Below, in pieces: positions 5,703 to 47,858 of a stretch of 64,000 nucleotides of DNA. The stretch spans positions 9,454 to 73,453 of IMG/VR virus record IMGVR_UViG_3300032893_000030. One strand, given 5' to 3'. This DNA is from a virus. The translations under genes and the position numbers were made by a program. Under the pieces are notes generated by a model that saw only the letters and a program-made list of their open reading frames with translations, was not told the DNA's origin and did not search any database. Numbering within the stretch: the first letter of the stretch is position 1; every line of letters begins with the position of its first letter.

Positions 5703-5726
5703 TAAATTAGAGGTAAAATTACAGTT

Positions 5727-5975: not shown

Positions 5976-5976
5976 T

Positions 5977-9090: not shown

Positions 9091-9125
9091 CGTGGCAACT
9101 TCCTCATTATTTGTTTTTCGGTTGT

Positions 9126-9160
9126 GCCTTCGGGGTGGTTCCCGAAGGCTTTTTTGTTTC
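9126..9160 (+). terminator. rho-independent terminator
   Basis: GCCTTCGGG-gtggtt-CCCGAAGGC followed by TTTTTTGTTT. Textbook intrinsic terminator. Confidence 0.7.
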
Positions 9161-9212
9161 ATCAAAGCTATACAAAAGTTTTTCATATTCAAATGTTCAT
9201 TATTTTAGTGGG

Positions 9213-24104: not shown

Positions 24105-27100
24105 TTATTTTTTGACGGTTTTTTCTGAGATCGCCCAGCGAACTACAAGGCAATTTAACCAGGAATACCAGTTCACATCTGGATCGAGTTTTACAAGCAA
24201 AGACAATGCCCTGCTTCGCATTACATTGCCATTTACGATTGACGTAGGCTGATCGGGCGGATTTATAGTCCAGATATCACGCTTGATGTCAGCCCACAAT
24301 GTACCCTCAAGATTTTTAAAATCTGTCAATAGCAGACGTGTTTGTTGATTGATCTGGCCATTGGTTTTGAAATCACTCTCAATCAATGGTGCTGACCATC
24401 CATCGGTTGCCTGAATATTGAGCGCCTGCCATATCTTCATCGTGCGCAAGTACCGGTTGGCTACCGGTTGCCACATTGTATCTTTTTTGAGACCATAGAA
24501 AGAACCAAAATCATCGCCTTGTTCATGGATATGAACTACTGCACCAATAATGGAATACGTTTCATTATCCAAACCGGCAAACGCATCCGGTGCGTAGCTG
24601 TACACAGACTTCCATCGTTTGTCCATCGGACGTTCGGAGAATGCGATGCATTTGTAATCGTCATAGCCACGGAAATTATCTGGTAGAGATGAATGATCAT
24701 TGAAGCAAATCCATTCATCATAGTATGCATCATATACAGATTTTGCCGTTGCTGGGGTGTCAGAATCATAGGTGTCAATCAGCATTTCAATAAGCTGATT
24801 GTACCAGATTGACATTCCCTCTTCACTGATGGCAGTTAATCCATCATCGCTGTATCTGATCCATCCTCCCTTTTTTGCATTCCAGAACATGACTCTGGAA
24901 TTTCTCTTACTCACGCTTTCAGGATTAAGTGTGCCATGACTTCCAATCAATGTGTTATATGCCCCGAGCACTTGATCGCTGAGTGTAACTTGCGTGTCTC
25001 CAGCAATATTTTGAAGCGTTGCGCGGTTTATGTAGACTGACCAGGTTTCTGATTCACCAATCACCAAGAGAATGTTACCCATCGATTTTACCTGAATATT
25101 GCTCACATTCACCATCGCGCGAATCTTTCCATATTCTGACGGAAAAATTTTCTGGTCCTGATCCTGGAAATTATTGAGGTTTATGAAAAGACTGTTCTCA
25201 ATAAACTTGCCACCGAAGCGAATCTGTGTACCAATGACAAATTGTGTAGGCACATTTTGATATGCGACAAATGGCCGTCCCGTGTTATGCTCCCATGGTG
25301 TGGATGCAGCTTTTGCGCGGTCTACATTCATCTGCACGAACTGCGGATATTCGCTCAATGTTGGAGGAATAGTAATGCTTCCAATGAATCCTTTCCATGG
25401 GTATCCACTGCCGCCATATCCTTCATCTAAAAGTCTTTGAGAATAAAAAAAGTTTTTCGCAACTATCCACACATCCCCATTTGTGATTGGAAGTTTATTG
25501 TAGAATGTGAATCCATTGAGTGTTGACGGTGAAACTGATGCTAAGTTCGTCCACGTAAAATCACGCTTTGCAAAATCTCTATTTGCTGTTTTTGGTTTTA
25601 TGATTGGATACCATTCACCCATCTCATAGAAAAGGACATTGGAGTCTTCGATGTTGATCACCGAATTACTGACCACTGTGCCAGATTGCAATGCTACAAC
25701 CTGCGTATTTCCACCTAAAACACCAGTGTTTATTTTGCCTTCTAATGCGAATTTTTTTGGGCGATATATCTCAATTGAGAATTGACGCGATTTTGTAGTT
25801 GAACTTTGTGTTCTATTTTTTAGTGTATAAAGAGTTTCTGGTTTTGCGACAATGATCCCAGTGCCGGTAAAAGTGATGATCTCTGCATCGAAGCGATTAT
25901 AAGTAGTATCTGTAGAATCTGTGCTTCCCCAAAAGCGCACACGATCGCCTGGTTGCCAACTGTAGAAGACATTATTACATGGCCATGGCGTACTTAAACT
26001 ACTTTTCGTTGAATCCAGATAAAAGTTGGATATATCAAAGTAGATAAGAGTACAATTATGTGAATCTGGTGCAAGATCATTTTTTCTGATTTGTGCTAAT
26101 ATGCGTGACACAAGATCATACTCTGCCCCAGATCCACTATTGAAATTATCATAATATCCAGAAATGATATCGCGAATTTCAGAATCTGTTTGCAAAGACC
26201 CATCGGCAAATCCTGTATTTAGATTTAAAAACTTGATGTAGTTGACAATGCCTAACACGAAGTAATCAATATTCAAGCAATTACTGCGCACAATCTGATA
26301 TGACACTGCCCAATCAGGAGGCGTGACCGAATTGGGAATTTTGAATCCAAGAGCATGATATCGTTCTTGCGCAGTAGGATTCGCATCAGTAGTTGGATTA
26401 AAGTCTGGAATCAGGTATGACCATTTGTCAAGGGTTTGTACTAGACCTGTTCGACCTGCTTCGTCTGAGAAAAGTATTCCGCATTTATAAATTCCTTTTT
26501 CCTTGAAACTGAATCGTTGAATTGGAAAATAGGAACTCAAGCCAGATACATTAAACCAATTGGGATCGGTTGATTCAATCGAGTAGACTTCAATATTGGT
26601 GATGTCAAGATTTGAAATAGGTTGGAACTGATCCTTGTTGTTGGCCAGCATTATTCGATTGTCAATTGCTTCAAGTGAAGCACTCAGCAATGGCACACTG
26701 TCAAAGTATTGCCCTATTTCCGTATCCGAAATTGTTCTTGTTGGTCCTGAATTATCAAATACCACACTGGCCGGTGCTGCTCCATTCAATGCAACTTTTG
26801 CAAATGACTTCCATGTGTCAATGGTTGATTGACGATAAGCGTACTCAATTGAATCGACAAACGAATAAAATCGAATATCGCTATGCTGGAAGGAAGTATT
26901 GGAAGGATTGTTGCTATCAAAGAGCCATCCATTGGCCACAATGTTAAAAGTCACCGGATCTCCAATCAAAGGACTTGGTTGCACCCCGTGACTTATATCT
27001 GAATTGACCTTGAATAGAAATTGATTGCTTACAAAATTGCTTGGCGGTGACCAGCATGATGCAAATCCTCCAACATAGATGTATCGGTAGGCAAATTGAA

Positions 27101-27767
27101 ATATTCCTTTAGTCAGAAAATCATTGGTTGCAGTAGCCCCCATGGTTACAAGCGGAGGCTTAATCGGTGCCCATTTAATCAGACTGATGTGAAATTCCGA
27201 GAATGAATTTCCAAGTGTGGACTTCAGTGTATAGATACTTGTGACATCGATGATCCGTGGTGGATTTCCAGTATTAGCAGTTGGGTTACCGTCTGTAAAA
27301 ATCAGATACTTGTCAATCTTGGTAATGGACACAAAGTTGTCCAGCGAAAAATTCAATCCTGACCAGAGAAGCAATTCGAAAATCTGCCGAGTACTTTTCT
27401 GATACATCAAAATGGTATGGCTACCATTTGAATTATAGACGGCCCAATACAGTTTCCGCTCCTTATGATCTTCGTATGGCTTACTGATGCAGGTATTATT
27501 TCCAGATGGCGCGCTTACCGCAGTCCATGCACTACCGTTCCAACGCTGGTATTCGGTGATCTCAAGAGTACTCCACATGTTCTCAAGAGCACCATCATTG
27601 TTACCAGATGTGGAACCAATCCGTGCATTGAGGGCATAGCGATAGTCTCCAAGAGCCTCAAAATCAGAACGGCCTTCTGATCCCTTTGAGGGCGACAGAA
27701 GGCCGGCATCTTGATTCATGCCACCGGCCGGGTAAAGAGGTATCAGTAACTCTTCGTCTGCCATCAA
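24105..27767 (-). CDS. large tail-associated structural protein (putative host-recognition/tail hub)
   Basis: 1220 aa. Beta-rich Asn/Ser/Thr/Trp/Tyr composition typical of tail or spike proteins. No enzymatic motif recognised. Confidence 0.55.
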   Translation of the reverse strand: MMADEELLIPLYPAGGMNQDAGLLSPSKGSEGRSDFEALGDYRYALNARIGSTSGNNDGALENMWSTLEITEYQRWNGSAWTAVSAPSGNNTCISKPYEDHKERKLYWAVYNSNGSHTILMYQKSTRQIFELLLWSGLNFSLDNFVSITKIDKYLIFTDGNPTANTGNPPRIIDVTSIYTLKSTLGNSFSEFHISLIKWAPIKPPLVTMGATATNDFLTKGIFQFAYRYIYVGGFASCWSPPSNFVSNQFLFKVNSDISHGVQPSPLIGDPVTFNIVANGWLFDSNNPSNTSFQHSDIRFYSFVDSIEYAYRQSTIDTWKSFAKVALNGAAPASVVFDNSGPTRTISDTEIGQYFDSVPLLSASLEAIDNRIMLANNKDQFQPISNLDITNIEVYSIESTDPNWFNVSGLSSYFPIQRFSFKEKGIYKCGILFSDEAGRTGLVQTLDKWSYLIPDFNPTTDANPTAQERYHALGFKIPNSVTPPDWAVSYQIVRSNCLNIDYFVLGIVNYIKFLNLNTGFADGSLQTDSEIRDIISGYYDNFNSGSGAEYDLVSRILAQIRKNDLAPDSHNCTLIYFDISNFYLDSTKSSLSTPWPCNNVFYSWQPGDRVRFWGSTDSTDTTYNRFDAEIITFTGTGIIVAKPETLYTLKNRTQSSTTKSRQFSIEIYRPKKFALEGKINTGVLGGNTQVVALQSGTVVSNSVINIEDSNVLFYEMGEWYPIIKPKTANRDFAKRDFTWTNLASVSPSTLNGFTFYNKLPITNGDVWIVAKNFFYSQRLLDEGYGGSGYPWKGFIGSITIPPTLSEYPQFVQMNVDRAKAASTPWEHNTGRPFVAYQNVPTQFVIGTQIRFGGKFIENSLFINLNNFQDQDQKIFPSEYGKIRAMVNVSNIQVKSMGNILLVIGESETWSVYINRATLQNIAGDTQVTLSDQVLGAYNTLIGSHGTLNPESVSKRNSRVMFWNAKKGGWIRYSDDGLTAISEEGMSIWYNQLIEMLIDTYDSDTPATAKSVYDAYYDEWICFNDHSSLPDNFRGYDDYKCIAFSERPMDKRWKSVYSYAPDAFAGLDNETYSIIGAVVHIHEQGDDFGSFYGLKKDTMWQPVANRYLRTMKIWQALNIQATDGWSAPLIESDFKTNGQINQQTRLLLTDFKNLEGTLWADIKRDIWTINPPDQPTSIVNGNVMRSRALSLLVKLDPDVNWYSWLNCLVVRWAISEKTVKK

Positions 27768-30679: not shown

Positions 30680-31048
30680 TTATAGCCAATCAGTATGATA
30701 AAATGCTACTATTGATGCGATAGCAAGAACAATCTTGAAAAAAATTATTGGTGTCTGCGCCTGCGCTTCAAATCGATCAAGCCAGGCAGTCTTCCCAAGG
30801 AAATCGAGTGGCTTTGGAATCATGTAATTGAGAATCGGGTTAAAGAAAAGCCAGAACGTGAAGAATGCACCGGTTCCCCAAAACAACAATCGCAGATATC
30901 CGATCGGATGATATGCCAACCAAATTACTCCCCATACTCCAAGTCGATAGAGAGTATTTATGCTGTGATTGACTTTGTTTATTCTCAGAAGGCCAAGATT
31001 GACAATCGCATCGACAACAATAAATACCAGCCACCAAATCCAGATCAT
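30680..31048 (-). CDS. polytopic membrane protein (about 4 TM)
   Basis: 122 aa, almost entirely hydrophobic helices (IWIWWLVFIVVDAIVNLGLL, GVWGVIWLAYHPIGYL, FWGTGAFFTFWLFF, IIFFKIVLAIASIVAFY). Confidence 0.5.
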   Translation of the reverse strand: MIWIWWLVFIVVDAIVNLGLLRINKVNHSINTLYRLGVWGVIWLAYHPIGYLRLLFWGTGAFFTFWLFFNPILNYMIPKPLDFLGKTAWLDRFEAQAQTPIIFFKIVLAIASIVAFYHTDWL

Positions 31049-31398
31049 TGTTTCTTGTGTTGTTGATTACGCAGAGAAATATCTCCGGTGATAATCATGT
31101 TGATCATTTCTTTCATCCCTTTAAGAGTGGCATCTAAAGAGGCCACAGATTGATTCAGCTTTGAATTACTGTTTGCCAACTCGCCAATAGTTTCCATGAC
31201 CTTGTTGTTATCCCGGACAAGCGTTTCAAGCGTTCCGTTCATGTCTTGTACCTCTTTGAGTTCTCTTTTTAAGCCATCAATTTCTGTGCGCATAGATGTC
31301 ATAGATTGGACATTTTTGCCCTTGAAATATGCCTCGCGGATTACCATCACCAGGATAGATCCAAAAAAGGCGAGAATTGATCCAACTATTTCTGACAT
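31045..31398 (-). CDS. N-terminally anchored coiled-coil membrane protein (i-spanin-like)
   Basis: 117 aa. Single N-terminal TM (IVGSILAFFGSILVMVI), then a periplasmic-type coiled coil (EIDGLKRELKEVQDMNGTLETLVRDNNKV...). Confidence 0.45.
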   Translation of the reverse strand: MSEIVGSILAFFGSILVMVIREAYFKGKNVQSMTSMRTEIDGLKRELKEVQDMNGTLETLVRDNNKVMETIGELANSNSKLNQSVASLDATLKGMKEMINMIITGDISLRNQQHKKQ

Positions 31399-31416: not shown

Positions 31417-31626
31417 TTAATGCTTATTTATTTCTCTTAAGGAATCCATAATTACTACTATTGAAAGCAATAACCATAATCCCCATGGAACTGCACCAAG
31501 CCAATCTTTGGCGGCATCTGAAATCACATCAGCTACCCATGGATTTATTAGATGGATCACAATTACCGGAATGGTCATGAGCAACCAAAGCAAGATGATT
31601 TTTTGAAAAAGAGTTAAATTTTTCAT
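31417..31626 (-). CDS. small two-TM membrane protein (holin-like)
   Basis: 69 aa. Two hydrophobic helices separated by a short loop and a charged C-terminus, a class II holin-like architecture. Confidence 0.4.
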   Translation of the reverse strand: MKNLTLFQKIILLWLLMTIPVIVIHLINPWVADVISDAAKDWLGAVPWGLWLLLSIVVIMDSLREINKH

Positions 31627-31633
31627 TTGGCTT

Positions 31634-33871
31634 TCAATATTGAGTCATCCCCATCCGGTATTGAACCGCTGAACTTTCTGCGCCAAAGCCATAACCATTA
31701 TACATGATCAGGCGATGCGGACCAGCACCGTCTGTTGGTAATGGCACCCATGAAGCCTTATAAATTTTAGAGTTGTCCCATGTATGATTCGCTGTTGGCC
31801 TTAGCAGATAATTATGTGGAAGGAACCAATTCGTTCCATCAATTGAAGAATAGACAACCAACGATCCTACTCCTGAGCCATCGTCATTTGTTGTGAGTGA
31901 AGCTAGAATCACATAACATCCGTAATCATCATCCCATCCTTCATACTCAATATGCCATGGCGGATATTGCCAATCGGACCATGGTTGTCCAGTTGTTCCC
32001 ACATTGCATATTGTCCTGTTTCCGTATGGCCCACTGACAGAAGGTGAACTATAAAATACAAGTCCATTTCGGTAACCTGCGCCATAAGTTCCGTTGATGA
32101 CTACATCGTAAAGTTTCCAATTGTTTGCCTGCTTATCATAATGGATTGTTTGATAAACTTCAATCGGAACTGAGTTTATCAAAATTGTTACCGAGTCACC
32201 TTTTGTCTGCCATCCATCTGTTGAAGGAATTAAATATGTTCGCGAAATATTTGTGTTGTGATCAGTATATCTGATCAGAACATACATGGTCATTGTGGAT
32301 GGATCAAAAATCAGTGATGGATCAGAATTGTTTCCTCCGCCCTGCATGTTGACAACAGGATTTTTGTATGGCGTTGCCCAAGTAACAAAATCATTAGTCG
32401 CGAAAATTGATGCATTTTCGTATTTGTCAAGATTGGATGGAACTCCAACAGCGACTAGCCAATATCGATAACCAAACCATGTCTGACCTGGACCAATTTC
32501 TTTATCCATATCCAGAATCTGATTCTCAACCCAGCAATATGGTATCAGACTTGTGTTGGGTGTATAAGTGAGTTGTACCCATTCATTTTGTCCGGCTTGA
32601 CTTGCATCAGTAATCTGCCATGAGGTTGTATTATAGGTGAGCAAGAGTTTTTGATTTACTCCAATACTTACGGGCGTTGGAGTGATCGGAAGTGCTCCAG
32701 TTGAATTCAGATTGAATGTTGGATTTTGAATCGTGTTCGCCTTAGTGAAGGTGACAAAGATCCGATACGTGCCGTTTGAAAAATTGGGGGCTGGTGATAC
32801 TGTGCCAGTGTAAGCATTCGTACCGTTCCCGGTGCAATTAAAGATGTAGTCATTAGGCCGAATGTAAGTTGGAGGCGAGTCCGGTGTAGTTTTGGTCTGC
32901 AAATAATACGCTCTCCATGTAGTGCCATCATCAAGCGTTGTGTACAGTCCATCATAGGCATGACCAGTACCATTTCCGAATGGCTGATTAAATGTGACTT
33001 TATTTCGCATTGAAGCGTAGTCTGTAAAGTCAACATTTGTCGGTGAATAAGTCTCCGGCAATGACCTAATGTAATCCGGTGCATTAGGAGCAACCGCCTC
33101 AATGAGCGGAGGAAGATTACATTCTGGCAATGAGATGCCACGCGATGCCAGTCTGGATGCGATGTAATTATTTGCCGCTTGAATTTCTGCTTCAGTTAAT
33201 GTTCTGGTGAATCCAATGAACGCTCCAACTTTTCCTCCACTAAGAATATAGCCGTTGGGATTTACAGGATTTGCGTAATTAGCAGCACCCATTGTAACAA
33301 GACCGGCAATGTCTGCGGTGGTTGTGTACATGCCAGTGTTCCATGCTGCCCGTGAAGCATTGAGTCCTCCCGTTTTATCCACTGCCCCATTGCGCCGGAT
33401 GTCTGGCATCACACTGATGGCAAATCCATTTGTGATGGTATTGACCTGAAAACTTGTATTACTTACACTTCCTTTGAAGATCATTCCGGTATTTGGATTG
33501 GGCACATAAAAAGCGATGAAGACGGTCTTGTAAGTGAGTTGTGGCAAATAGAACCATGAGTTACCATCAAATTGAATTCCTTCTTGGCATCGCTGTGGCC
33601 AATGACCATAGCCATTTTGTCCTTGTGTCGGAACTTGAATATCACGATGATTGGGACTTGCATCAATAAAAGCAGTGCCACTGTCACCTTCAAAGAAATA
33701 GGCGACATCTGCCTGCTGCAAGATCACCGAGTCAGCAAGACGCGATGTAAGAAGTTGTTTCTGTATTTTGATTGGTGGAGAAACAACTGTCTTTTTGGAC
33801 GTTACATCCAATCCAGGGTTGCATGCAATCATTGCAATCCAGAGTGTGAGAAGAATAAATTGGTTTTTCAT
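31634..33871 (-). CDS. secreted lipoprotein with LamG-like N-terminal domain and Asp-box (BNR) beta-propeller, glycosidase/sialidase-like
   Basis: Preferred start is Met17 of table ORF 31634..33919, which avoids overlap with the fibre gene. Signal peptide plus lipobox MKNQFILLTLWIAMIAC. The N-terminal ~200 aa are jelly-roll/LamG-like. C-terminal region has Asp-boxes PSTDGWQT and SSIDGTNW plus Trp/Tyr-rich propeller-like blades. Confidence 0.55.
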   Translation of the reverse strand: MKNQFILLTLWIAMIACNPGLDVTSKKTVVSPPIKIQKQLLTSRLADSVILQQADVAYFFEGDSGTAFIDASPNHRDIQVPTQGQNGYGHWPQRCQEGIQFDGNSWFYLPQLTYKTVFIAFYVPNPNTGMIFKGSVSNTSFQVNTITNGFAISVMPDIRRNGAVDKTGGLNASRAAWNTGMYTTTADIAGLVTMGAANYANPVNPNGYILSGGKVGAFIGFTRTLTEAEIQAANNYIASRLASRGISLPECNLPPLIEAVAPNAPDYIRSLPETYSPTNVDFTDYASMRNKVTFNQPFGNGTGHAYDGLYTTLDDGTTWRAYYLQTKTTPDSPPTYIRPNDYIFNCTGNGTNAYTGTVSPAPNFSNGTYRIFVTFTKANTIQNPTFNLNSTGALPITPTPVSIGVNQKLLLTYNTTSWQITDASQAGQNEWVQLTYTPNTSLIPYCWVENQILDMDKEIGPGQTWFGYRYWLVAVGVPSNLDKYENASIFATNDFVTWATPYKNPVVNMQGGGNNSDPSLIFDPSTMTMYVLIRYTDHNTNISRTYLIPSTDGWQTKGDSVTILINSVPIEVYQTIHYDKQANNWKLYDVVINGTYGAGYRNGLVFYSSPSVSGPYGNRTICNVGTTGQPWSDWQYPPWHIEYEGWDDDYGCYVILASLTTNDDGSGVGSLVVYSSIDGTNWFLPHNYLLRPTANHTWDNSKIYKASWVPLPTDGAGPHRLIMYNGYGFGAESSAVQYRMGMTQY

Positions 33872-33881
33872 TATTTGTTTT

Positions 33882-36800
33882 TTAGTTGTTCGATACTGGT
33901 AGCCAATTGGCGCGCGCAAATTTTAACACTATGTCGTTCGTAGCTGCGCCAGTTCCACCTGCCTGGCCGGTTAGTTTCAGAATGTTAGTATTGGAAAGAG
34001 TAAGTCCGGTCAATTCACCTACCGATTCATCGGAAGAAAATCCACCTAAACCTGTTACAATTGAATATCGCACAACTGTTGAACTCACACGAATGATTGT
34101 AACTTCCAAGGAAAATCCTGCACCCAATGCAGTATTTTGGGCAGTGCTATCATAGATCATAGTCCCCCCAAAGTACACACGAAGCTGTCGGGTGGCTGTT
34201 GAAGAAGCGACCATTTTACCCACATATTGTGCTTTGATCTTTGCACCGTTCGCTTCTAAAGTGTTTGCTGGAGTTGTATATGAATGCAGATCCGTTTCTG
34301 TTGTTGAAGTGTTTCCAGCATCAGCATAGGCTTCAAATATCTCTCCGCCTATACCAAATCTGAGTCCGCTATTTTTGGTGAAGTAAAGTGAATTATTGTA
34401 TTCCAAATTACCTGCAACAGCCGTTGTAAGATTTGTACCACTTGTAAGTTTGAAGGGGCCAACGGTCGCTGTACCGGCACCAAGATGCATGATTGCAGTA
34501 GGCGTTCCGCCTGCTCCAAAACTATTGAGCATCCGAGCATCTCTGATTAGTACGCCATACAAAGTGGCGGCATTACTGCTTGTTAGATTGAAACTCGGAT
34601 TGAAATCAATGAATGAGAATGTGAGTGTCGATGTGCCAGTGGTTTGAATCAATGTACTATAGTCAAGCCATTTTGCTGTGACAATAGAACTGTTGGTCGA
34701 AGAAACCGTATTTGAACTTCCATATTCAAGCCATGTGAATGCGCTGGTGCCGGTGGATGGCCCTAAAATGACGGATTGAATTGTGAAAAATCTTCCAGTA
34801 CCAGATGTCTGAGTATAATTTGAACCATTGGTGAATGTAAATGCACCAGTAGTTCCGTATGCTCCAGATGTTCCAGCTTGCCAATACCATCCATAAGCAC
34901 CTAGCGAAGCACCACTTGATGTAGCACCCATGAAAAAATTCGCGGTATTGCCGTCAGAATAAATTTTGCTGGTAGTGGCATTGAAAGTATAAGCCGCAGG
35001 AGTGGTTCCAATTGTTCGGAAATTTACATTTCCAGAACTATCTACAGTAAATACATCATTACCTAATCCACTGCCAGTACGAACCCTGAAAAGCAATAAT
35101 GTCGTGCCTGTTTTTCCACCGGCTGATAATGTGCCAGTGATATCAACGCCAGCCAGTACTTGATTATTCTGCGCGGCTGTCATTGTGGGATTGAATAAAA
35201 TCCCATTTGTATAATCTCCCAGTGTACCGTCTCCGGTTATTGTGGGAGAAAATGTCATGTGGTATTGGTTATTCGCTGAGGCTGTCCATGTTCCATCAAA
35301 TGTCCATTGATTAGCGGCATTTGATGTCAATGATGTTGCTCCAGTTAATGTACCACCAAGTTTTACATTTGTCGTGGTGGCCGTTAATCCATTCGTTACT
35401 GATGCATACGCTGGTTTTACACCAACACCTTGTGAGGCTAGGACTGATCCTGTAGCAACAGCCGAAAGAAGAGCATAAGTTGAAGAATTGCCAACCAGTA
35501 AATCTCCATCCGTTGGCGCTCCATTTCCGGTGCCTCCATTGTTGGCTCCAAGAACAAGAGTAACATCGGCAGTGAGATCCACCTTGCTCCATGATGGTGA
35601 TGTTCCTCCATGTAAAACGGTAGTGGATGATCCAGCAGCCAGGCGAGTCAATGTTCCTGATCCACCATTGTAATAAATGTCTCCGGTTGCATCAGACCCC
35701 AGCAATACTTTTGTTCCTGATCCAAGCGTCTTATTAGTCAATGTCTGCGTGAATGCAGCAGTAACCATCGTGTCATTTCCAGTGAGCAATGGAAGGGTAA
35801 TATTGCGATCAGCGGCAATGGCACTTCCGACTAGGGTATAAACGTGTGTGACCGCAGGATTGTAAATCGAAAGTTTTGAACTCTGAAATGAATGAGTTCC
35901 GGTCCACACAAAATTGTATGTCAAATCAACGGATGCATCGGTGCGTGTTGCACCGCCATTGTCAACTGCGGATAATCCGCTGGTAAAGTTTAAGACAATT
36001 TCCTGAATGAGTGGAGTTCCGCCACTTTCAATCGTTCCGTAGAATTGTCCTTCAAGTACACCACCAACAAAAGAAAATCCTAAACCAAGAGCCACTTCTT
36101 CAATACTTCCAGCTCCCGAACTGAAACGACCCAACAGTCGATTAGTTGCAGATACATTTTGAATCTTACTGTATGTTACAGCCGCTGCGGCAATAGTAGT
36201 GGCAAATGATCCTGTTCCTGATCCAGTTACGTCTCCGGTCAGTGTGATTGTCTGATCGCCAGTGTTTGTTCCTGAAACCGAAGCATCAAGTGGAACTGTT
36301 AAGGTCTTTGATGTTGTGCCACCGGCAATAGTGAATCCTACAGAAACAGCCGTCAATGTCAATCCATTTACGGTAGATGGAGTAATCGCTCCAAGGCTTA
36401 ATGTAATTGCCGGTGTTGTTGTCGGATTGCTGACTGAACCAGAAACCCCATTTGCAGTGACCACTGAAACAGTGGTTACGGTCCCCGCGCCAGGCGCTGC
36501 TGCCCATACAGGAACTCCGCTGGAAAGTGTTAACACATAACCATCGGTAGTCGCTGTGAGTTTTGAAAGCACATTGCTTGCTGAAGCATACAAAATGTCA
36601 CCCGTCGCATAGCTGGTAAGATTAGTTCCTCCATGCGTGGTGCCAAGTGTTCCGGCCATTGTAATAGTACCGGTAGTTGTGACAGGACCACCTGAGAACG
36701 TCAATCCAGTTGATCCACCACTCACATCGACTGATGTTACAGAACCCGTACCTGTTACTGTCTGCCAAACAGGCGCACCACTGACAATTGTTAACACCGT

Positions 36801-37763
36801 TCCATTTGCTCCTGGCCCCAACTGTGATGCTGTATTGCTGGCATTACCAACAAAAATTGAATTCAGCGCAAGTGAATTGATCAGACGATTGTTGATCTGC
36901 ACCTGAATGTCTGAGGCGGCTGTATTGAGATAATTCAATTGCGCGGTAGTGGATGTTATTCCACTCAGAACATTGATTTCCGCTGCGGTGGCGCTGATAT
37001 CGGTGACATCAGCCATGACAAGCGTATGCCAAGTGGTATCATAATCAGTTCCTGAGTTTTTGACCAAGAATTGATTTGTGCTGCCACCTGCCGGCATTGA
37101 CGGTGATGGAGTATTGATCCAATTTGTGCCGTTGTAAGAAATAATATCTCCGCTCGCTGGAGATGTTAATACAACAGTAAGTTTGGAATCAAGTTGTGAT
37201 TGAATTCCAGACGTGACACCGGAAACATATCCTATCTCAGTGGTTGTGGTTCCACTTACTGCAACTTTTCCGGATCCATCGCTTATAAGTGCATAGCCGG
37301 CCGTGAGATTCGAAGTCACAATAGATGAAGCGCCTCCGGTAATTGTCGCCTGCTTGGCATTGAGTTGGGTTTGGATCGCACTGGTAACACCAGAGACATA
37401 CCCCAACTCAATTGATGTTGTCGGAGAAACTCCCAATAAACCACCGGCAGTACTCATCACAGCGCGGGCAGCAGTCAGACTAATGGTATTCTGTTTGGAA
37501 TTAATCTGCGCTTGAATATTGGACGTAACATCTGTGAGATATCCAAGTTGTGTTGCGGTAATCAGACTGGATGTGAGAAATCCACTTCCATCATAAACAG
37601 CCACAACGTTTGGATTCTGTGCAGTAAGACGGGCAACGTCAAGAGTAGCATATTTGACAATACTCCCTGATGAATCATAAGCCAAAAAATGATCGCTTGA
37701 TCCGCCATCGGCAGGAGTGAAATCAAGTTGTAGGCCATTGGGTATGATAACGGGATGGCTCAT
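33882..37763 (-). CDS. tail fibre protein (1293 aa) with repeated E(L/I)GYVSGVTSxIQxQL(N/D)xK motifs
   Basis: Multiple phage tail-fibre-repeat-like motifs near the N-terminus. The long Gly/Thr/Ser-rich beta region is typical of fibres. Confidence 0.75.
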   Translation of the reverse strand: MSHPVIIPNGLQLDFTPADGGSSDHFLAYDSSGSIVKYATLDVARLTAQNPNVVAVYDGSGFLTSSLITATQLGYLTDVTSNIQAQINSKQNTISLTAARAVMSTAGGLLGVSPTTSIELGYVSGVTSAIQTQLNAKQATITGGASSIVTSNLTAGYALISDGSGKVAVSGTTTTEIGYVSGVTSGIQSQLDSKLTVVLTSPASGDIISYNGTNWINTPSPSMPAGGSTNQFLVKNSGTDYDTTWHTLVMADVTDISATAAEINVLSGITSTTAQLNYLNTAASDIQVQINNRLINSLALNSIFVGNASNTASQLGPGANGTVLTIVSGAPVWQTVTGTGSVTSVDVSGGSTGLTFSGGPVTTTGTITMAGTLGTTHGGTNLTSYATGDILYASASNVLSKLTATTDGYVLTLSSGVPVWAAAPGAGTVTTVSVVTANGVSGSVSNPTTTPAITLSLGAITPSTVNGLTLTAVSVGFTIAGGTTSKTLTVPLDASVSGTNTGDQTITLTGDVTGSGTGSFATTIAAAAVTYSKIQNVSATNRLLGRFSSGAGSIEEVALGLGFSFVGGVLEGQFYGTIESGGTPLIQEIVLNFTSGLSAVDNGGATRTDASVDLTYNFVWTGTHSFQSSKLSIYNPAVTHVYTLVGSAIAADRNITLPLLTGNDTMVTAAFTQTLTNKTLGSGTKVLLGSDATGDIYYNGGSGTLTRLAAGSSTTVLHGGTSPSWSKVDLTADVTLVLGANNGGTGNGAPTDGDLLVGNSSTYALLSAVATGSVLASQGVGVKPAYASVTNGLTATTTNVKLGGTLTGATSLTSNAANQWTFDGTWTASANNQYHMTFSPTITGDGTLGDYTNGILFNPTMTAAQNNQVLAGVDITGTLSAGGKTGTTLLLFRVRTGSGLGNDVFTVDSSGNVNFRTIGTTPAAYTFNATTSKIYSDGNTANFFMGATSSGASLGAYGWYWQAGTSGAYGTTGAFTFTNGSNYTQTSGTGRFFTIQSVILGPSTGTSAFTWLEYGSSNTVSSTNSSIVTAKWLDYSTLIQTTGTSTLTFSFIDFNPSFNLTSSNAATLYGVLIRDARMLNSFGAGGTPTAIMHLGAGTATVGPFKLTSGTNLTTAVAGNLEYNNSLYFTKNSGLRFGIGGEIFEAYADAGNTSTTETDLHSYTTPANTLEANGAKIKAQYVGKMVASSTATRQLRVYFGGTMIYDSTAQNTALGAGFSLEVTIIRVSSTVVRYSIVTGLGGFSSDESVGELTGLTLSNTNILKLTGQAGGTGAATNDIVLKFARANWLPVSNN

Positions 37764-40355: not shown

Positions 40356-41813
40356 TTAGAACAGATCGTACACTCCGAGAATGTGCTTTTGCGATCCCAC
40401 CACGCGAACGCCCTTTTCAGAGCCTAAGCTGATAGTTCTCAAACGCTGTGTGTTGGTAGGCACCGGAGCATTACCACCTGTTTGCCAGATTTTGTAATGT
40501 CCGCGCGAACCTCCACCGACTTGGCGCTTGTACATGATCGTGAAAGCGTCCATCGGAATTCCCGTCTTTGCATCCTGCGTTTTGTCCATCGGTGCGATGA
40601 TGAAGTAGTAAGGATACGGACGGCCGGGGATATTGGTCAACTGAGGATTGTTGAGAATCCGCAGTTCTTTCATGTTGAATGTGGCCCCGGGAATGGTGAT
40701 GGAGTCGATGCCCAGATCAACGGCCTTGTGATCATACACAATACTACCATTGTTTCCAAGGGCAGTGATTGTGTCGGACGCAAGATATCCGAATTCCTGG
40801 CCATACCACATCATGCAATCCCGCTTCTGGTTCAACCTGTTGCGCAGGCGGGCCAGTTGCTTGTACAGCGTGAAGGTGATGTTGTCACCATATTGCTGAT
40901 GTGGAGCATTGGCATCCAGCACGGGGATATATCCGTTCGAAGTGGTCAGCGTTTTGTTGCTGGCACTGATCGGATCATACACTACGGCAGCGGCATCCGC
41001 AGCCGGTACTACGAACAATCCCATGGCTTCCATGGTGAGGAACACGTCCTCAGTGTCGCGCAGACCGATTTCATGCCAGAATTTGATGGTCTGACCGGTC
41101 TGCGGATCATAGATTTCGTAGGTCTTGTTCATTTCCTGCTTATCGGTCACGTTGTACACGTTTCCGAAGGTGGACAGATAGCTGCGGTAGGTCGTGAAGA
41201 CCGGTACAGAACCATCCTGCATACCCCAGGTTGCTTCTTCGAAGTTCGCTGTGGGTAGCGTGATTTGGTCGCCTCCATAGGTAGATCCAACCAAGCTGAT
41301 GGTGGCTGAAAGTGCCGGATATGAAGCCGAAAGCGGTGTGATGTACAGTCGGTGCGCATTTGCGACCGATTCGCGCTTGCCCTGAATTCGCCAGAAATAC
41401 TTTCCGGTGAATTCGATGATCATCCCCACACGCGGATAAGACTTCGTGTTGGTCAGATCACCAGCCGTGGGACTGTGGGACAGCGGAGAAAGCTGCACAT
41501 ACTGATAGCCGGAGAAGGCCGCAGGATCACCATTGCCAACCGATGCCGTTCCGTACACGTTGGTGATAACCGTGTCAGAATTCAGATAAGGCGCATCGAT
41601 GATTTTTCTTTTCTCGCGGTGAATGATTTCTTCACCGAAGACTTCTTCCATCATCCCCATCTTCATGAAATCTCCGACATCGGATTCCAGCGGGTTGACG
41701 TTGAAGAGTTCTTTTACGATCTGAGGTTCCAAAAGGAACTCGATATTGGAGATTAACGGATAGGCCTCGGTGGCCGCTACCGAAAAATCTCTGTACGTGT
41801 TAGTCGTTGCCAT
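40356..41813 (-). CDS. major capsid protein
   Basis: 485 aa. Sits directly downstream of the scaffold gene and upstream of a strong terminator. Composition and size fit HK97-fold phage capsid proteins. Order is TerL-portal-scaffold-MCP. Confidence 0.8.
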   Translation of the reverse strand: MATTNTYRDFSVAATEAYPLISNIEFLLEPQIVKELFNVNPLESDVGDFMKMGMMEEVFGEEIIHREKRKIIDAPYLNSDTVITNVYGTASVGNGDPAAFSGYQYVQLSPLSHSPTAGDLTNTKSYPRVGMIIEFTGKYFWRIQGKRESVANAHRLYITPLSASYPALSATISLVGSTYGGDQITLPTANFEEATWGMQDGSVPVFTTYRSYLSTFGNVYNVTDKQEMNKTYEIYDPQTGQTIKFWHEIGLRDTEDVFLTMEAMGLFVVPAADAAAVVYDPISASNKTLTTSNGYIPVLDANAPHQQYGDNITFTLYKQLARLRNRLNQKRDCMMWYGQEFGYLASDTITALGNNGSIVYDHKAVDLGIDSITIPGATFNMKELRILNNPQLTNIPGRPYPYYFIIAPMDKTQDAKTGIPMDAFTIMYKRQVGGGSRGHYKIWQTGGNAPVPTNTQRLRTISLGSEKGVRVVGSQKHILGVYDLF

Positions 41814-43244: not shown

Positions 43245-45632
43245 TTACTTTTCAGATTTTTCAAGTTGTTTCCTGTCCTGCGCTGCCGCTTTGACAAGAG
43301 ATGATTCATGTTGTTTATCTGCCTTATAATTTTCGCTTCGTGCCCGCATTGCCTCTTTCAGAATCATATCGATGCCAGCCTGCTTCTTGATTTGCATTTC
43401 CACCATGTCAGAAACCTTGTTCACTTCGCCCTCGAGCATGGCTTTCTTGGTCATCAATGCATCATCAATCTTGGCCTGAATGGCCATTAATTCCTTGGCA
43501 TCCGCCTGTTTCTGCTGCAGAAGTGCCATTTCCATCTGAAGTTTACGCTGGTCGGACTTTTCACCAGCCTGCATCTGGAATTGTTGATCCTGCGCGCGCA
43601 TCTTCAGCGCCTTGGCTTCATTGATTTTCTCGCGGTTGGCCATGATCTGGCGGGCCATCTTCATGTTTCGGATGTCACGAATAAATGCGCTATCGCTGGC
43701 ATTGAGTTTGCCTTCCTTAACGTTTGAAGCCAGTTCATTGTAGAAATCAATCCACTCTTCTTCCGTTGGTTCACGTTCCATGACAAGGCCATATTCGCAG
43801 TAGGCAATGTCATCCGGAACTTCAAAGAATTCGGTCGTTGATGTACCAAGGGCAGGAATCATTCCTTTGATGGCTACTTTATCGCGCATTGATTCCTGGG
43901 CCAACAAAAGCATGATATGACTAGCCTGTTGATAACTCTGAAGCCGTCCGTTGACCAAATATTCAATTGCATCAGATCCGGCATTGACATTGGCCTTCAT
44001 CGCCCCCACCGCCAGGCGATCCGGCAATGAGGCAGATTCAATCACGGTTGATCCGCTGAGTTCATCAAGGAATCGAATCGAAGTGGTGATTGTGTTGAAA
44101 TAATCAGCAAGCGTAAGTCCAGCGCCAATTTCACGGATTGCCTCACCGACTTGTTGGCCGTAGGCTGAGATATTCCTCCGACTGATGATGATGTTGCTCT
44201 GCATGAAAAAGTCAATAACATCATTGGCATTCCAAACCTTCCCTCCGCGGGTAAGAGCCACTTCATCCAGCGCAGTCAGGTTCAGGTCCAGAACGCCCAT
44301 GCGGCCTTTGGCCAGGATATCCTTGATCTTATTCCACGCGACATTGATCATGGTCAGTGGTTCAATCATCTGTGACACCAGACTCACCACGCGACCCTCT
44401 TTCATGTTGGGAGCAAAGGTGATAATTGGCAGGCGCTGATTGACCAGATTCAAACGCGGCATTTCTTTGCGGCCATAGTTGAATACAACTTCACTGTCAA
44501 TCACCCAACTGCCGCCATACAGAGAAGTGTACTGATTGCGAATTACCGAGCTGTTCTTCAGAGGGTTTTTTGCCGGATTGTATTCATAATGCCGTTCTTC
44601 GATCTGTGGATTGCCGTAGCTATTCTTCCATACCTTGAATGCGCGCGAATCATTGGACAAGAAATAGAAACGCATCACCGGTATATAGTCCAAACCATCG
44701 AAATTCTTATAAAATTCAGGTAAGGTTCCGTAGGTAACCCCCGCGTTGGGGAAGGCGTGGCTGGTGAGAACCTGATCAATTTTATCCTTTGACAGAGTGC
44801 CTTCTACTTCTTTTTTGAACTGATTGCGCGTGATAAAATCCACGAAGAAGGCATATTCCTGCCGGGAATAGTCTTCATTCTCCACGTAAGAACCACCCCA
44901 ATATTTGGGATTTATCCGGTGAATCCGTGGCACCTTGTTGCGATCATTGAAGCAGTGCATGTGCCGGCGACCAAGGACCACAGAATCCCAATCGGTTTCA
45001 CGTAACACCTGGTCGGTGTTGTTAATCGAATGCAATAAGCGCAAGGTCTTTTCGGCATCAATAACCTTCTTGATCTTCTGGTTGACGCTTAAGTCAAACA
45101 TCAATTCTTCAGGATATTCCGGCAGAAGCGACACATCGAGTTCCGGAAAAATCTGCTGGGGATCAACCTTAAGCGATTTGAACCAATCTTTAAGTTCGTA
45201 CAGAGTCCTGATTTGAGCATTGTAGGACTTGGCTTCATCCACGGAGATTGGGTCAACAGCAGAAAGCGCGATGTTGTAGCGATACCGTTGCAGTTTAGCC
45301 ACCGCGCGGTTTACGTACTTCGTACACAGATTGAGTACCTGGATATCGATATATGCCAGCGACTGTTGATCATCTCCCGTCTGACCCCGGTCAGTAAAGT
45401 ACCCATACATCCGGAAGATGTTATCAACAGATTGCCGCCCTTGCGCTACCTCGACAAGTGCATTGTAGGTGGAGTCTTCAGAATAAAGACGATATCCATA
45501 TCGATTGGTCGCATAATACATTGCTCTGGCCTCAGCCAAGCCAAACCAATCTTCCTCCTTTTCTTGTGGAGGGGTATATTCATCTGGAAATTGGAAACTA
45601 AGTCCTGTGCGACTTAACTCTGAAGATGCCAA
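43245..45632 (-). CDS. portal protein (large, ~795 aa, C-terminal coiled coil)
   Basis: Located between TerL and the scaffold gene. Size and charged coiled-coil C-terminus resemble large podovirus-type portals. Table start is TTG at 45632 with no upstream in-frame ATG. Confidence 0.8.
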   Translation of the reverse strand: MASSELSRTGLSFQFPDEYTPPQEKEEDWFGLAEARAMYYATNRYGYRLYSEDSTYNALVEVAQGRQSVDNIFRMYGYFTDRGQTGDDQQSLAYIDIQVLNLCTKYVNRAVAKLQRYRYNIALSAVDPISVDEAKSYNAQIRTLYELKDWFKSLKVDPQQIFPELDVSLLPEYPEELMFDLSVNQKIKKVIDAEKTLRLLHSINNTDQVLRETDWDSVVLGRRHMHCFNDRNKVPRIHRINPKYWGGSYVENEDYSRQEYAFFVDFITRNQFKKEVEGTLSKDKIDQVLTSHAFPNAGVTYGTLPEFYKNFDGLDYIPVMRFYFLSNDSRAFKVWKNSYGNPQIEERHYEYNPAKNPLKNSSVIRNQYTSLYGGSWVIDSEVVFNYGRKEMPRLNLVNQRLPIITFAPNMKEGRVVSLVSQMIEPLTMINVAWNKIKDILAKGRMGVLDLNLTALDEVALTRGGKVWNANDVIDFFMQSNIIISRRNISAYGQQVGEAIREIGAGLTLADYFNTITTSIRFLDELSGSTVIESASLPDRLAVGAMKANVNAGSDAIEYLVNGRLQSYQQASHIMLLLAQESMRDKVAIKGMIPALGTSTTEFFEVPDDIAYCEYGLVMEREPTEEEWIDFYNELASNVKEGKLNASDSAFIRDIRNMKMARQIMANREKINEAKALKMRAQDQQFQMQAGEKSDQRKLQMEMALLQQKQADAKELMAIQAKIDDALMTKKAMLEGEVNKVSDMVEMQIKKQAGIDMILKEAMRARSENYKADKQHESSLVKAAAQDRKQLEKSEK

Positions 45633-45665: not shown

Positions 45666-47858
45666 TTACAAAACTCGCTGTCCTTGCACCGGAACCAATT
45701 TTCCATTGACCATCCGGAAAGTCCGGAAATAATGACTCACATCTTTGGCTTCCGGTGGTTTATACCCCTGGCGCATCCGGGGAATAAGTACCAAATTCCC
45801 ATACGCTACCGCATAATCATGGGGTTTTGTCTTCAGTGGATTAAAAATCAATAAATCTTCCACCACTTCGATAAAAGGAATGGTATGCCCGAAATAATCC
45901 ACTTCGGTGCTCAAGGCGGAGGTATATTCATTGATGATCAATGGCGAAGCTGGTGTGCCTTCCACATCATCGGATCGTTTCACTTTTTCCGGATCAGGGA
46001 CATACTTCTTCCAAATGAAGTCTATACAACCAGCATCTCTAAACCAGTTGATGATGCCTGGCTTCTGCGCCTCTACTTGCAACTTCACACTCAGTAACCA
46101 GCAAATCATCAAAGATCGCTCAAAGAGAATATTCGGATCTGTTGGTCTGGTGTCCATCATCCATATCAACTTGTTGGTCTTGTAAGGATACTTATCTCGC
46201 GCGCGTTGCTCCAGAATTTCCTGCGTAAGTTGTCCATCGATAGCCGGATCATATTTCCTGCGCACTAGCTGCACCGGCCGCGACCGGCGTGAACTCACAT
46301 ACTCATCCTTTTCCATGATGTTCTCGATGACTACACCATGGTCAATAGGGTCGATAGCGGATTCAAAAATTTCATCATTCTTCGGAAAGAATAACTGCCG
46401 ACCACCTTCCTGTCTGCGTCCCACATTATTCAGCCAAGCCTTTTCTTCTGCTGTCTTGGGTAACCAAATACAATCCAGCCATCCATTATCTGGATTATCA
46501 ATCATCACTACATTAGTGAAGCGCCGGTTGTTCTCCCATTTCAAATCTACGCGGCGGCGGATTGGAGGATTTATCAATAAATCCGATTTTTGATCTTGCA
46601 GAATTGTTGCATTGAACTCACAATTTTCACTTGAGATATAAAAGACTTCATTCCAGTTTAGCGGATATTTGCGTACAAGTTCTGAATAGTCTTTTGGCTT
46701 ATCTTTGACTTTGCTACGCTTGATCATTATTTCCTTAGTTGCTCTCTCTCGTATCGGGAATCCCCACTCGTCAATACAGCCTTCCATTGCACAATCTGCC
46801 GGCATCAGTGCAGCATATAGACCCGAAGTCGTTTCGCCATCTTCACCTTTGTCATCAAAGTCACTTTCATAAACCAACTTCTTGTATGCCTTACCTCCTG
46901 AAGTCGAAGAATTAAAAAACTCCACCGTAGTTCCGAGAAATGCTTTGCCAATAATATTGATGCCAAGTGTCAAACATGGTTTTACACGACTCCAACGTTC
47001 ATGCACACTATAATCCTCCGTTTTGCCAGGCTCCTCCATGCCATAACTATGTAATTTTCTTTGGTCATACTTTCCGGATTCACTCGAGCGATAATCCAAC
47101 ATTGACTCTAATACAAGTTTACTAGTAGATTGAATTCGTTTTTTATTTCGCCTGGGTGCATCTCGAAAAATGATCCCTCTTTTTTGCAGTGTACTAATGT
47201 CATACGTGGGTTTGAAAAAATACGAGAATTTATAGAATGGTTCAATGACATGTTCTTCGTAAAAACTTTTGATTTTATCATTTGTCTCTCCTTGCATTCC
47301 AGAAATATGCCGGAAATTTGTGCAGGTGCGATTCATTATCCAAAATCCCATCTTCGCTGATTTTCCCATACGACGACCGGAGTTCAGCGCACCCCCGTAA
47401 GATTTTGGATCTTCCTCCCAATATTGAATCCAATAAAAAATTTCACGATCGGCCTCCCAATAATCAGGTGGCCCAAAAAGAGGATTCCAATGACATAAAT
47501 ATTTGTAGTGATATCCTGTTAAGTAAGTTTTTCCTCCTTTCAGCCAAAACCAAATACCATTTTCACTTCGTGTCCATTCCTGATCTTCCCATTTGTTAAT
47601 TTCCTCTTGATGCGGATGAATATAATTTGGATTGATATTTCTTTCTTGTTCAAATTCATTCATCCAAGCCTGCAAATAATCTGGAGGAGTCGGACGCACG
47701 AATTTGTGGTCCTCAGAAAGCGTCAATACTTCTGAATCAGCAGGTTCTTCTGGAAGATAGACCTCCTTGATACCTGCACCCTTGATGCCGGTGATTAAAT
47801 ACTGAAAATGATACGGATTATTGGTCTTGGCAAACACCTTGGTTCGGTTGTGAACCAA
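45666..47858 (-). CDS. terminase large subunit
   Basis: 730 aa. Walker A-like GRRMGKSAKMG. Conserved acidic nuclease-domain residues toward the C-terminus. Lies immediately upstream of the portal gene. Confidence 0.75.
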   Translation of the reverse strand: MVHNRTKVFAKTNNPYHFQYLITGIKGAGIKEVYLPEEPADSEVLTLSEDHKFVRPTPPDYLQAWMNEFEQERNINPNYIHPHQEEINKWEDQEWTRSENGIWFWLKGGKTYLTGYHYKYLCHWNPLFGPPDYWEADREIFYWIQYWEEDPKSYGGALNSGRRMGKSAKMGFWIMNRTCTNFRHISGMQGETNDKIKSFYEEHVIEPFYKFSYFFKPTYDISTLQKRGIIFRDAPRRNKKRIQSTSKLVLESMLDYRSSESGKYDQRKLHSYGMEEPGKTEDYSVHERWSRVKPCLTLGINIIGKAFLGTTVEFFNSSTSGGKAYKKLVYESDFDDKGEDGETTSGLYAALMPADCAMEGCIDEWGFPIRERATKEIMIKRSKVKDKPKDYSELVRKYPLNWNEVFYISSENCEFNATILQDQKSDLLINPPIRRRVDLKWENNRRFTNVVMIDNPDNGWLDCIWLPKTAEEKAWLNNVGRRQEGGRQLFFPKNDEIFESAIDPIDHGVVIENIMEKDEYVSSRRSRPVQLVRRKYDPAIDGQLTQEILEQRARDKYPYKTNKLIWMMDTRPTDPNILFERSLMICWLLSVKLQVEAQKPGIINWFRDAGCIDFIWKKYVPDPEKVKRSDDVEGTPASPLIINEYTSALSTEVDYFGHTIPFIEVVEDLLIFNPLKTKPHDYAVAYGNLVLIPRMRQGYKPPEAKDVSHYFRTFRMVNGKLVPVQGQRVL

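Follow-up and report, generated by a model that had tools for sequence, protein, structure and literature searches.

Organization of the locus and of the encoded protein

The DNA analyzed here, referred to as the window, is a 64,000-nucleotide (nt) stretch of the virus record IMGVR_UViG_3300032893_000030 in IMG/VR (positions 9,454 to 73,453 of that record). Within the window we studied a minus-strand open reading frame (ORF) that runs from an ATG at 33871 to a stop codon at 31634-31636 (31634..33871) and encodes a protein of 745 amino acids (aa), called the target below. A sequence-only reading of the window had described the product as a lipoprotein with a LamG-like lectin domain and an Asp-box beta-propeller, encoded immediately downstream of the tail fiber. 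The placement is borne out, since the target ATG lies 10 nt past the stop codon (33882) of a 1293-aa Gly/Thr/Ser-rich fiber-like ORF. The three regions beyond the N terminus were delimited by BLASTP against the two closest homologues, P0002 and P0004. Together with predicted local distance difference test (pLDDT) values of an AlphaFold2 (AF2) model, this gives the following parts.

33821..33871, minus strand: signal peptide with lipobox, aa 1-17, MKNQFILLTLWIAMIAC, with Cys17 as the predicted lipidated +1 residue (from the sequence and the PS51257 rule)
33734..33820, minus strand: linker after the predicted lipid anchor, aa 18-46, NPGLDVTSKK..., with no K-(D/E)2 motif (pLDDT <50 for aa 21-46)
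33041..33733, minus strand: putative jelly-roll domain of ConA/LamG type, aa ~47-277, with a helix and an NLPPLIE linker at its end
32534..33040, minus strand: inserted middle region, aa 278-446, specific to the target and absent from P0002 and P0004 by BLASTP (pLDDT <50)
31637..32533, minus strand: five-bladed beta-propeller of the FpGalNAcDeAc (PDB 6N1A) family, aa 447-745 (by phmmer, profile, Foldseek and pLDDT)

The target has a predicted lipoprotein signal peptide

The N terminus of the target, MKNQFILLTLWIAMIAC, contains Lys2, a 12-residue hydrophobic core and the lipobox A-M-I-A-C17. It was compared with the PROSITE lipobox rule PS51257, which calls for a positively charged n-region, a hydrophobic h-region and [LIVMFWSTAG]2-[LIVMFYSTAGCQ]-[AGS]-C at residues 15-35. 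The target satisfies this rule with K2, FILLTLWIAMIA and A-M-I-A-C17. The hydrophobic segment spans aa 5-23, and in the AF2 model aa 2-16 form a helix that is followed by a disordered linker. Among the ORFs of the window longer than 88 aa, the target is the only one that fits the rule, and it does so from the ATG or from the upstream TTG start. The n-region, h-region and lipobox are thus all present, in agreement with the signal peptide and lipobox cysteine predicted by the sequence-only reading.

That reading had also raised the possibility of a mis-started tail spike. The only upstream in-frame start is TTG 33919, which overlaps the upstream gene, lengthens the positively charged N-region and keeps the signal peptide. 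In the other direction, the next methionine after Met14 is Met130, which lies within the putative jelly-roll domain (N-domain). A start at Met14 is the only one that would bypass most of the signal, and Met14 is not conserved in P0002 or P0004. A mis-called start was therefore rejected, and the mis-started spike is disfavored because no start codon other than this unconserved methionine removes the signal.

Lipoproteins of Bacteroidota reach the cell surface only with an export signal of the K-(D/E)2 type after the lipidated cysteine, Q-A-(D/E)2 being a further form (PMC5080379). Neither motif follows Cys17 of the target, whose predicted mature N terminus, CNPGLDVTSKK, has a single Asp at +5. 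The mature N terminus of P0002, CSTDLIDK, has no acidic pair either, and P0004 is not a lipoprotein. The compartment common to all three proteins would therefore be the periplasm. As judged from these N termini, the anchor of the target most likely faces the periplasm, and surface exposure is doubtful. In that compartment, the protein would meet capsule and O-antigen units, glycoproteins and peptidoglycan during assembly or in transit, and not the finished surface receptors.

Sec signals and virion-type extensions exclude each other among close relatives

We searched 1.84 billion cluster representatives exhaustively with HMMER and obtained 454 homologues of the target, of which only ~10 have the N-terminal domain. 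The closest are P0002 (37% identity) and P0004 (32%), whose genes occupy the same position as the target in crAss-like contigs, past the fiber genes and ahead of the ring and muzzle genes. P0002 starts with a Sec signal, MKIFSILISLIILAC, that includes a lipobox. P0004 starts with a type I Sec signal, MKKYFLIFAIFFSWVTTIA followed by QPD, and its predicted cleavage between TIA and Q exposes an N-terminal Gln. An N-terminal Gln after type I signal cleavage is known as the Bacteroidetes Q-rule (PMC5837995). The signal-peptide features of the target are therefore conserved in its closest relatives. As a check, the sequence-only reading had proposed asking whether related phages start at an upstream Met and have no signal peptide; the outcome is clear, as both proteins begin directly with Sec signals.

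Five other full-length proteins with the N-domain (P0003, P0005, P0006, P0007 and P0010) have no signal. They carry N-terminal extensions of 110-250 aa that consist of Ig-like Big_12 or fn3 domains or of an Ala-rich coiled coil. One of them, P0003, is also encoded on a crAss-like contig at the same position as the target. A Sec signal is thus present in 3/3 extension-less N-domain proteins (the target, P0002 and P0004; two of lipoprotein type and one of type I) versus 0/5 of those with an extension, so the signal peptide and the virion-type N-terminal extension are mutually exclusive within this small set. Among homologues across the propeller family, about one in six has a signal peptide.

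A k-mer homologue search with the target returned only the target itself, and the same search with the N-domain alignment returned nothing. The N-domain alignment had no match among PDB sequences. Scans of IMG/VR and of JGI metagenomes with the target, the N-domain alignments and a 69-aa neighbor described below found no relatives, and a fold search of BFVD gave no informative named match.

Divergence was assessed against L005, the crAss-like contig that encodes P0004. The target and its L005 homologue are 32% identical, compared with 68% for the major capsid protein (MCP) and 45% for the muzzle protein, a pattern that fits a host-interaction gene exchanged among phages. In two much more distant crAss-like contigs, L004 (which encodes P0002) and L009, a target homologue at 30-40% identity was among the few proteins that tblastn detected, and the capsid and muzzle proteins were undetected. 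These comparisons suggest that the module has been exchanged horizontally among phage lineages.

The C-terminal domain is a propeller of the FpGalNAcDeAc family

In the AF2 model, aa 447-745 have pLDDT values mostly >90 and form ~18 strands. The target alone matched PDB entry 6N1A by phmmer with an E value of 4.2e-6 over aa 462-720, and a profile built from 150 family members matched it at 7.6e-70. Foldseek ranked 6N1B and 6N1A first (E 3e-18, template modeling score [target] 0.67), followed by five-bladed enzymes of glycoside hydrolase family 43 (GH43). Both entries are the N-acetylgalactosamine (GalNAc) deacetylase of Flavonifractor plautii (UniProt P0DTR4), FpGalNAcDeAc. Weaker matches of the family profile were to the GH43 chain 3qz4, deposited as endo-1,4-beta-xylanase D (4e-14), to GH130 (1e-8) and to GH32 (3e-7), and sialidase chains reached only ~6e-4. 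The similarity to GH43, GH32 and GH130 is remote (profile E values of 4e-14 to 1e-5, Foldseek E values of ~1e-8, 12-15% identity). By profile and model comparison, the domain is a five-bladed member of the FpGalNAcDeAc family that is remotely related to GH43, GH130 and GH32.

The sequence-only reading had called the body of the protein sialidase- or glycosidase-like, with Asp-box motifs. The target had no match to Pfam, NCBIfam or BNR/sialidase models and only two weak matches of unknown function in PHROGs; BNR_2 matches were weak and limited to 4/30 homologues. The exact pattern S-x-D-G-x-x-W occurs once, as SIDGTNW at aa 676-682. Degenerate copies lie in family-conserved columns at aa 492-498 (TNDFVTW) and aa 550-556 (STDGWQT), and the sole canonical Asp-box, TLDDGTTW at aa 312, belongs to the middle region, modeled with low confidence, and not to the propeller. 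The hairpins at aa 492-498, 550-556 and 676-682 are, from their alignment, blade motifs conserved in the family. A GH33 sialidase or BNR six-bladed propeller was rejected, given the lack of a BNR match, the five blades and the position of the canonical Asp-box. From the 6N1A profile match and the Foldseek ranking, the domain is therefore assigned to the deacetylase-family five-bladed propellers and not to the GH33 sialidases. The earlier call of a propeller stands, that of Asp-boxes stands only in part, and the enzyme class shifts to that of a sugar N-deacetylase, the nearest relative.

We then considered which family-conserved residues are present in the target. Columns that are at least 95% conserved are mostly kept, as E485, D494, W498, D517, H640 and Y704. 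Conservation is 99% for the E485 column, 100% for D517 and 97% for H640, and the Y704 column falls within 97-100%. The active-site residues of FpGalNAcDeAc, which we take to be E64, H97, D100 and H252, presumably correspond to chain residues E84, H117, D120 and H272 if the chain carries a 20-residue tag, a mapping that serves as a lead. Chain residues E84, H117, D120 and H272 align with E485, N514, D517 and H640 of the target. By this alignment, the conserved acidic and histidine residues of the putative pocket appear largely intact in the target. Two nearly invariant histidine columns of the family hidden Markov model (HMM), columns 17 and 199 (E449 and H640 in the target), each contain a minority Glu in 5 sequences and no other notable variation, and a His/Glu alternation at both columns would fit metal ligands. 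At column 17, Glu is found in 5/142 sequences, P0004 included; hmmalign placed a gap in P0002 at this column, and BLASTP showed the same AEL motif there.

The putative jelly roll, the inserted module and the propeller point to a tail-spike ancestry

The best fold matches of the N-domain include a phage tailspike. The middle region contains one copy of a ~90-aa tail-fiber repeat module at aa ~330-430 (nt 32582-32884; ...FTKANTIQNPTFNLNSTGALPI...LLTYNTTSWQI), which the sequence-only account of the domains had missed and which makes that account incomplete. The module has the consensus FTNANTxxxPTLNLNxxGAxxI...YDGTxF. It forms tandem arrays in the fiber-like proteins P0020 (6 copies), P0052 and P0145, and a fiber gene of L009 (6644-7792) contains it as well. 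It received no Pfam name in the scans run and appears, from this distribution, to be a mobile tail-fiber building block.

In cultured phages, the propeller is found in annotated minor tail proteins, for example, gp77 of Microbacterium phage Leaf and gp34 of Arthrobacter phage Ranunculus. It is present in 30 loci of IMG/VR, 28/30 without a signal peptide, and several of the N termini resemble those of phage tail proteins. A scan of GTDB genomes found only distant relatives, in Firmicutes, Chloroflexota, Saccharimonadales, an archaeon and others, and none in Bacteroidota. The distribution in tail proteins therefore identifies the target as a tail-spike-type module.

The target lies in the late operon of a crAss-like phage

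The target is embedded in a minus-strand gene train of ~38 kb, whose members are listed in the order of the train.

45666-47858, minus strand: terminase
43245-45632, minus strand: portal
Between the portal and the MCP-like gene, minus strand: 421-aa gene
40356-41813, minus strand: MCP-like gene, followed by three further genes
33882..37763, minus strand: 1293-aa fiber-like virion protein, upstream of the target (phrog_16122, "virion structural protein," E 3e-11)
31634..33871, minus strand: target, followed by three small membrane proteins, a 179-aa gene and ring-like virion proteins
24105-27767, minus strand: 1220-aa protein with a crAss muzzle C-terminal domain, at the end of this order

The source phage is a distant crAss-like phage, and the target stands at the end of its tail-fiber genes. 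Over its N-terminal 333 aa, the 1293-aa protein shares 41% identity with the product of a syntenic 1287-aa gene in L005, and it had no match in PDB or Pfam. A protein identical to the target is present on six metagenomic contigs, the largest of 73 kb (ERZ27256510 k141_4522145). Searches of 50,697 phage records by tblastn and megablast gave no match to a cultured phage at the DNA or protein level. A prophage or bacterial origin of the gene was rejected because its context is a crAss-like late operon. Promoter and terminator scans gave background levels, which is compatible with cotranscription of the target in the late operon. A Shine-Dalgarno core precedes 3/26 late genes, and the leaders are A-rich. 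From the crAss-type virion genes and these leaders, poor in Shine-Dalgarno cores, we infer a Bacteroidota host.

Three small membrane proteins follow the target

The genes directly downstream of the target are as follows.

31417..31626, minus strand: 69-aa two-transmembrane (two-TM) holin-like protein with a charged C terminus, 7 nt past the target stop (two hydrophobic segments)
31045-31398, minus strand: 117-aa protein with an N-terminal TM segment and a coiled coil (hydropathy; weak coiled-coil-type matches only)
30680-31048, minus strand: 122-aa multi-TM protein (hydropathy)

By these features, the three genes together resemble a lysis cassette. With a fiber gene on one side and small membrane genes on the other, the target is thus at the junction of the fiber block and a lysis-like cluster. 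The 69-aa protein is 71% identical to a 68-aa gene that overlaps the 3' end of the P0004 gene (L005 11626-11832), its only other homologue in a collection of 5.8 billion proteins. It is much more conserved between the window and L005 (71%) than the adjacent propeller proteins are (32%). No endolysin was found in the 64-kb window by Pfam and/or PHROGs searches of ORFs of at least 100 aa or by tblastn with the DUF5675 protein of L004 and the NlpC/P60-like protein of L009, and no o-spanin ORF was recognized in the window. The target itself was rejected as an o-spanin: it has 745 aa and three folded domains, and the 69-aa gene separates it from the TM/coiled-coil gene.

In L004, the gene next to the target homologue encodes a soluble 123-aa protein, and the genes after the homologue (L004 12164-13800) include those for two-TM and TM/coiled-coil proteins, for a protein with DUF5675 and for a secreted 58-aa peptide of the Q-rule type. 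The DUF5675 protein has an H..GN....T.(G/A)C motif reminiscent of YkuD-type L,D-peptidases, and the signal of the 58-aa peptide is predicted to be cleaved between VIA and Q. Judged by these motifs, the two may be an endolysin and a nonlipoprotein o-spanin analogue. In L009, a 178-aa protein encoded two genes downstream of the homologue is NlpC/P60-like by sequence reading.

Further genes of the window

Several genes of the window, in the minus-strand stretches 4935-8744 and 15520-16835, encode predicted transferases. A GT2 glycosyltransferase (4935-5702) and a methyltransferase (5977-6519), both on the minus strand, form a carbohydrate/methyl transfer set with a protein that combines DUF5672 and a GT9 heptosyltransferase-like part (6497-7996, minus strand), a PHROG glycosyltransferase (16125-16835, minus strand) and a second methyltransferase (15520-16128, minus strand). 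This set suggests that glycans or the virion are modified. An 862-aa protein encoded downstream of the muzzle gene (18919-21507, minus strand) has a GGACT (gamma-glutamyl cyclotransferase-like) domain at aa 707-799 (E 9e-14) and could be an enzyme that the virion carries and that acts on gamma-glutamyl bonds. On the plus strand, a 276-aa ORF (9111-9941) has a Cpn10/GroES-like C-terminal domain, and ORFs of this strand gave a Cpn60/GroEL match (E 4e-61) and a second Cpn10 match (E 1e-18); a 532-aa ORF (2609-4207, plus strand) fits GroEL by size. Other matches were to SSB, C5 DNA methylase, YopX, Band_7 and HNH.

A spike module that may act from within the host envelope

The target has an export signal where its signal-less relatives have a virion-attachment domain, so it is probably sent to the host envelope and not to the virion. 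Our preferred explanation, held tentatively and with slightly less than even confidence, is that it is a Sec-exported, lipid-anchored envelope enzyme derived from a spike module that lost its adaptor and gained an export signal. A receptor-binding and receptor-modifying module of a tail spike would have lost its N-terminal virion-attachment part and acquired a signal peptide of type II (lipoprotein). The protein, a product of late expression, would be exported by Sec, cleaved at Cys17 and left hanging from the membrane by its lipid, most likely facing the periplasm of a Bacteroidota cell. There it would expose a lectin-like jelly roll, a fiber-type beta module and a five-bladed propeller of the metal-dependent GalNAc-deacetylase family. 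It might then edit a glycan of the envelope, carrying out N-deacetylation or a similar hydrolytic reaction on an acetamido sugar of capsule, lipopolysaccharide or another wall polymer. If the edited glycan is the one recognized by the phage's own fibers, infected cells and debris would no longer capture progeny or admit superinfecting phage. Glycan editing is, we infer, the most economical role. A broader version, in which the exported spike module of a lytic crAss-like phage is either an "inside-out" receptor-destroying enzyme or an unconventional lysis enzyme coupled to the two-TM holin-like protein and acting from the periplasm late in infection, seems to us rather unlikely.

Several observations weigh against the preferred explanation. 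The propeller family is overwhelmingly a virion tail module and the target gene sits at the end of the fiber block, which makes a structural role what one would expect by default. The PS51257 rule is loose when used alone, as 34/3132 arbitrary start positions in the window fit it (~1%), and the residue at -3 is a Met, which the rule permits and which is not the commonest choice. The lineage is rare, with only three signal-bearing proteins in 1.8 billion cluster representatives. The His-Pro pair that is 95-97% conserved in the family is E449-N450 in the target, and the residue matching His97 of FpGalNAcDeAc is Asn514, in a column where the family has Y, F or H; because of these replacements, activity may differ or be lost. 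Without a surface-export signal, the target may never reach surface receptors. Finally, late expression leaves little time for receptor remodeling.

A rival view is that the target is an ordinary virion tail spike or side fiber, whose N terminus is used for attachment and not for export, or whose translation starts at Met14 and yields a cytoplasmic form, with the LamG and propeller domains binding or modifying capsule at adsorption. In cultured phages and in uncultured ones, the propeller is a module of tail proteins, a fiber repeat module is inserted in the target, and Met14 would start translation just before Cys17. The gene directly follows a fiber gene in the kind of hypervariable spike region that is typical of Crassvirales (review, PMC10136315). 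It is also among the most diverged genes relative to L005 (32%, versus 68% for the MCP), as expected for a receptor-binding protein. However, all three extension-less relatives carry complete Sec signals, and these are of two types; the Q-rule signal in one of them is hard to explain for a protein assembled in the cytoplasm. The target also lacks the N-terminal adaptor domain that its signal-less homologues have, and the internal methionine is not conserved in P0002 or P0004. On balance, we regard a virion spike as unlikely. The proposal of the sequence-only reading that the product is exported rather than assembled into virions thus has good computational support from the predicted signal features and their recurrence in relatives, while a virion role still fits the tail-module family.

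If the protein is exported, it could instead be the first gene product of a lysis cassette, that is, an enzyme that degrades or loosens the envelope, waits in the periplasm and acts when the holin-like protein fires, replacing or assisting an endolysin or an outer membrane disruptor. Sec-exported endolysins exist in other phages, such as Lys44 of fOg44 and the SAR endolysins. The target gene lies 7 nt ahead of the two-TM holin-like gene, the pair is kept in L005, where the two genes overlap, and TM-plus-coiled-coil and multi-TM proteins come next. The lack of a recognized endolysin family or o-spanin ORF in the 64-kb window points the same way, yet the window omits ~9 kb of the longest (73-kb) contig, which may hold a lysin. 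The homologues of L004, L009 and the P0010 contig also have small genes after them, with putative lysins in L004 (DUF5675) and L009 (NlpC/P60-like); these lysin candidates are, however, separate from the homologue, and the next gene in L004 encodes the soluble 123-aa protein and not a holin. We know of no peptidoglycan hydrolase with this propeller fold, and the characterized family member removes an acetyl group without cleaving the backbone, according to the 6N1A description. A role in lysis is accordingly a distinctly poor prospect in our estimate. The lipoprotein architecture and the two carbohydrate-binding-type domains would also suit an exported noncatalytic lectin that masks a host glycan or receptor and excludes superinfection by occlusion, as Llp and Cor do on FhuA. 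The loss of the 95%-conserved His-Pro (E449-N450) and the replacement of FpGalNAcDeAc His97 by Asn514 would agree with a loss of catalysis. Against this, E485, D494, D517, H640 and Y704 are all retained, and His to Glu is a recurrent, ligand-compatible substitution within the family. Known masking lipoproteins are, moreover, far smaller than the 745-aa, three-domain target. Of the explanations considered, we find masking by a lectin the most improbable.

Comparison with known systems

FpGalNAcDeAc, reportedly the subject of Rahfeld et al. 2019, shares with the target the same five-bladed propeller family. The two differ in sequence (~20% identity), in the residue at the position of His97 (Asn514 in the target) and in the His-Pro pair (Glu-Asn in the target). 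The F. plautii enzyme is bacterial and secreted, carries a carbohydrate-binding module at its C terminus and converts the blood-group A antigen to its galactosamine form (PMC11762096). The target, in contrast, is phage encoded and has a predicted lipoprotein anchor, a putative N-terminal jelly roll and a fiber module. The phage minor tail proteins and fibers that carry the propeller (Leaf gp77, Ranunculus gp34 and P0003) have a homologous C-terminal domain, and P0003 also shares the N-domain and the position between fiber and ring/muzzle genes. These tail proteins have N-terminal extensions and no signal, whereas in the target a lipoprotein signal is predicted and an attachment domain is absent.

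Phage lipoproteins that act on the phage's own receptor include Llp of T5 and Cor of phi80 and N15, which are exported by Sec, processed by signal peptidase II, protect infected cells and save progeny from debris. They are under ~100 aa, are nonenzymatic and bind a protein receptor. The target has no detectable homology to them and is a 745-aa protein with enzyme- and lectin-type domains. Virion-borne O-acetyl esterases of the SGNH fold, such as gp63.1 of phage G7C, the acetyl esterases of Vi phages and HEF of influenza C virus, deacetylate the receptor glycan without depolymerizing it. The target differs from these tailspikes and viral receptor-destroying enzymes in having a propeller of an N-deacetylase family and in being, as it seems, exported by the host and not carried on the particle. 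Exported phage lipoproteins and receptor-modifying spike enzymes are each known; we know of no described combination of the two. Temperate phages of Porphyromonas gingivalis encode Q-rule signal-peptide proteins of unknown function that have been proposed to modify the envelope (PMC10367356). P0004 resembles these proteins in its Q-rule cleavage site.

Significance for crAss-like phages and for the propeller family

If the target is virion borne, it is another diversified spike. The preferred explanation, a lipid-anchored enzyme derived from a spike, would matter for a wide group of phages. Among the phages of Bacteroidota, Crassvirales and their relatives rank with the most abundant, and their infection is governed by variation in capsule and surface glycans. 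To our knowledge, next to nothing has been learned about how they keep their progeny from being lost to debris and to cells already infected, or about how they lyse their hosts. Likewise, we know of only one characterized member of the GalNAc-deacetylase propeller family, which is of interest for blood-group conversion. If the preferred explanation is true, a spike-derived enzyme that travels by the host Sec/lipoprotein pathway would give the idea of receptors edited from inside the cell a concrete candidate that can be tested. The little-studied GalNAc-deacetylase propeller family would also gain a place in phage biology, with a large reservoir of variants in phage tail proteins.

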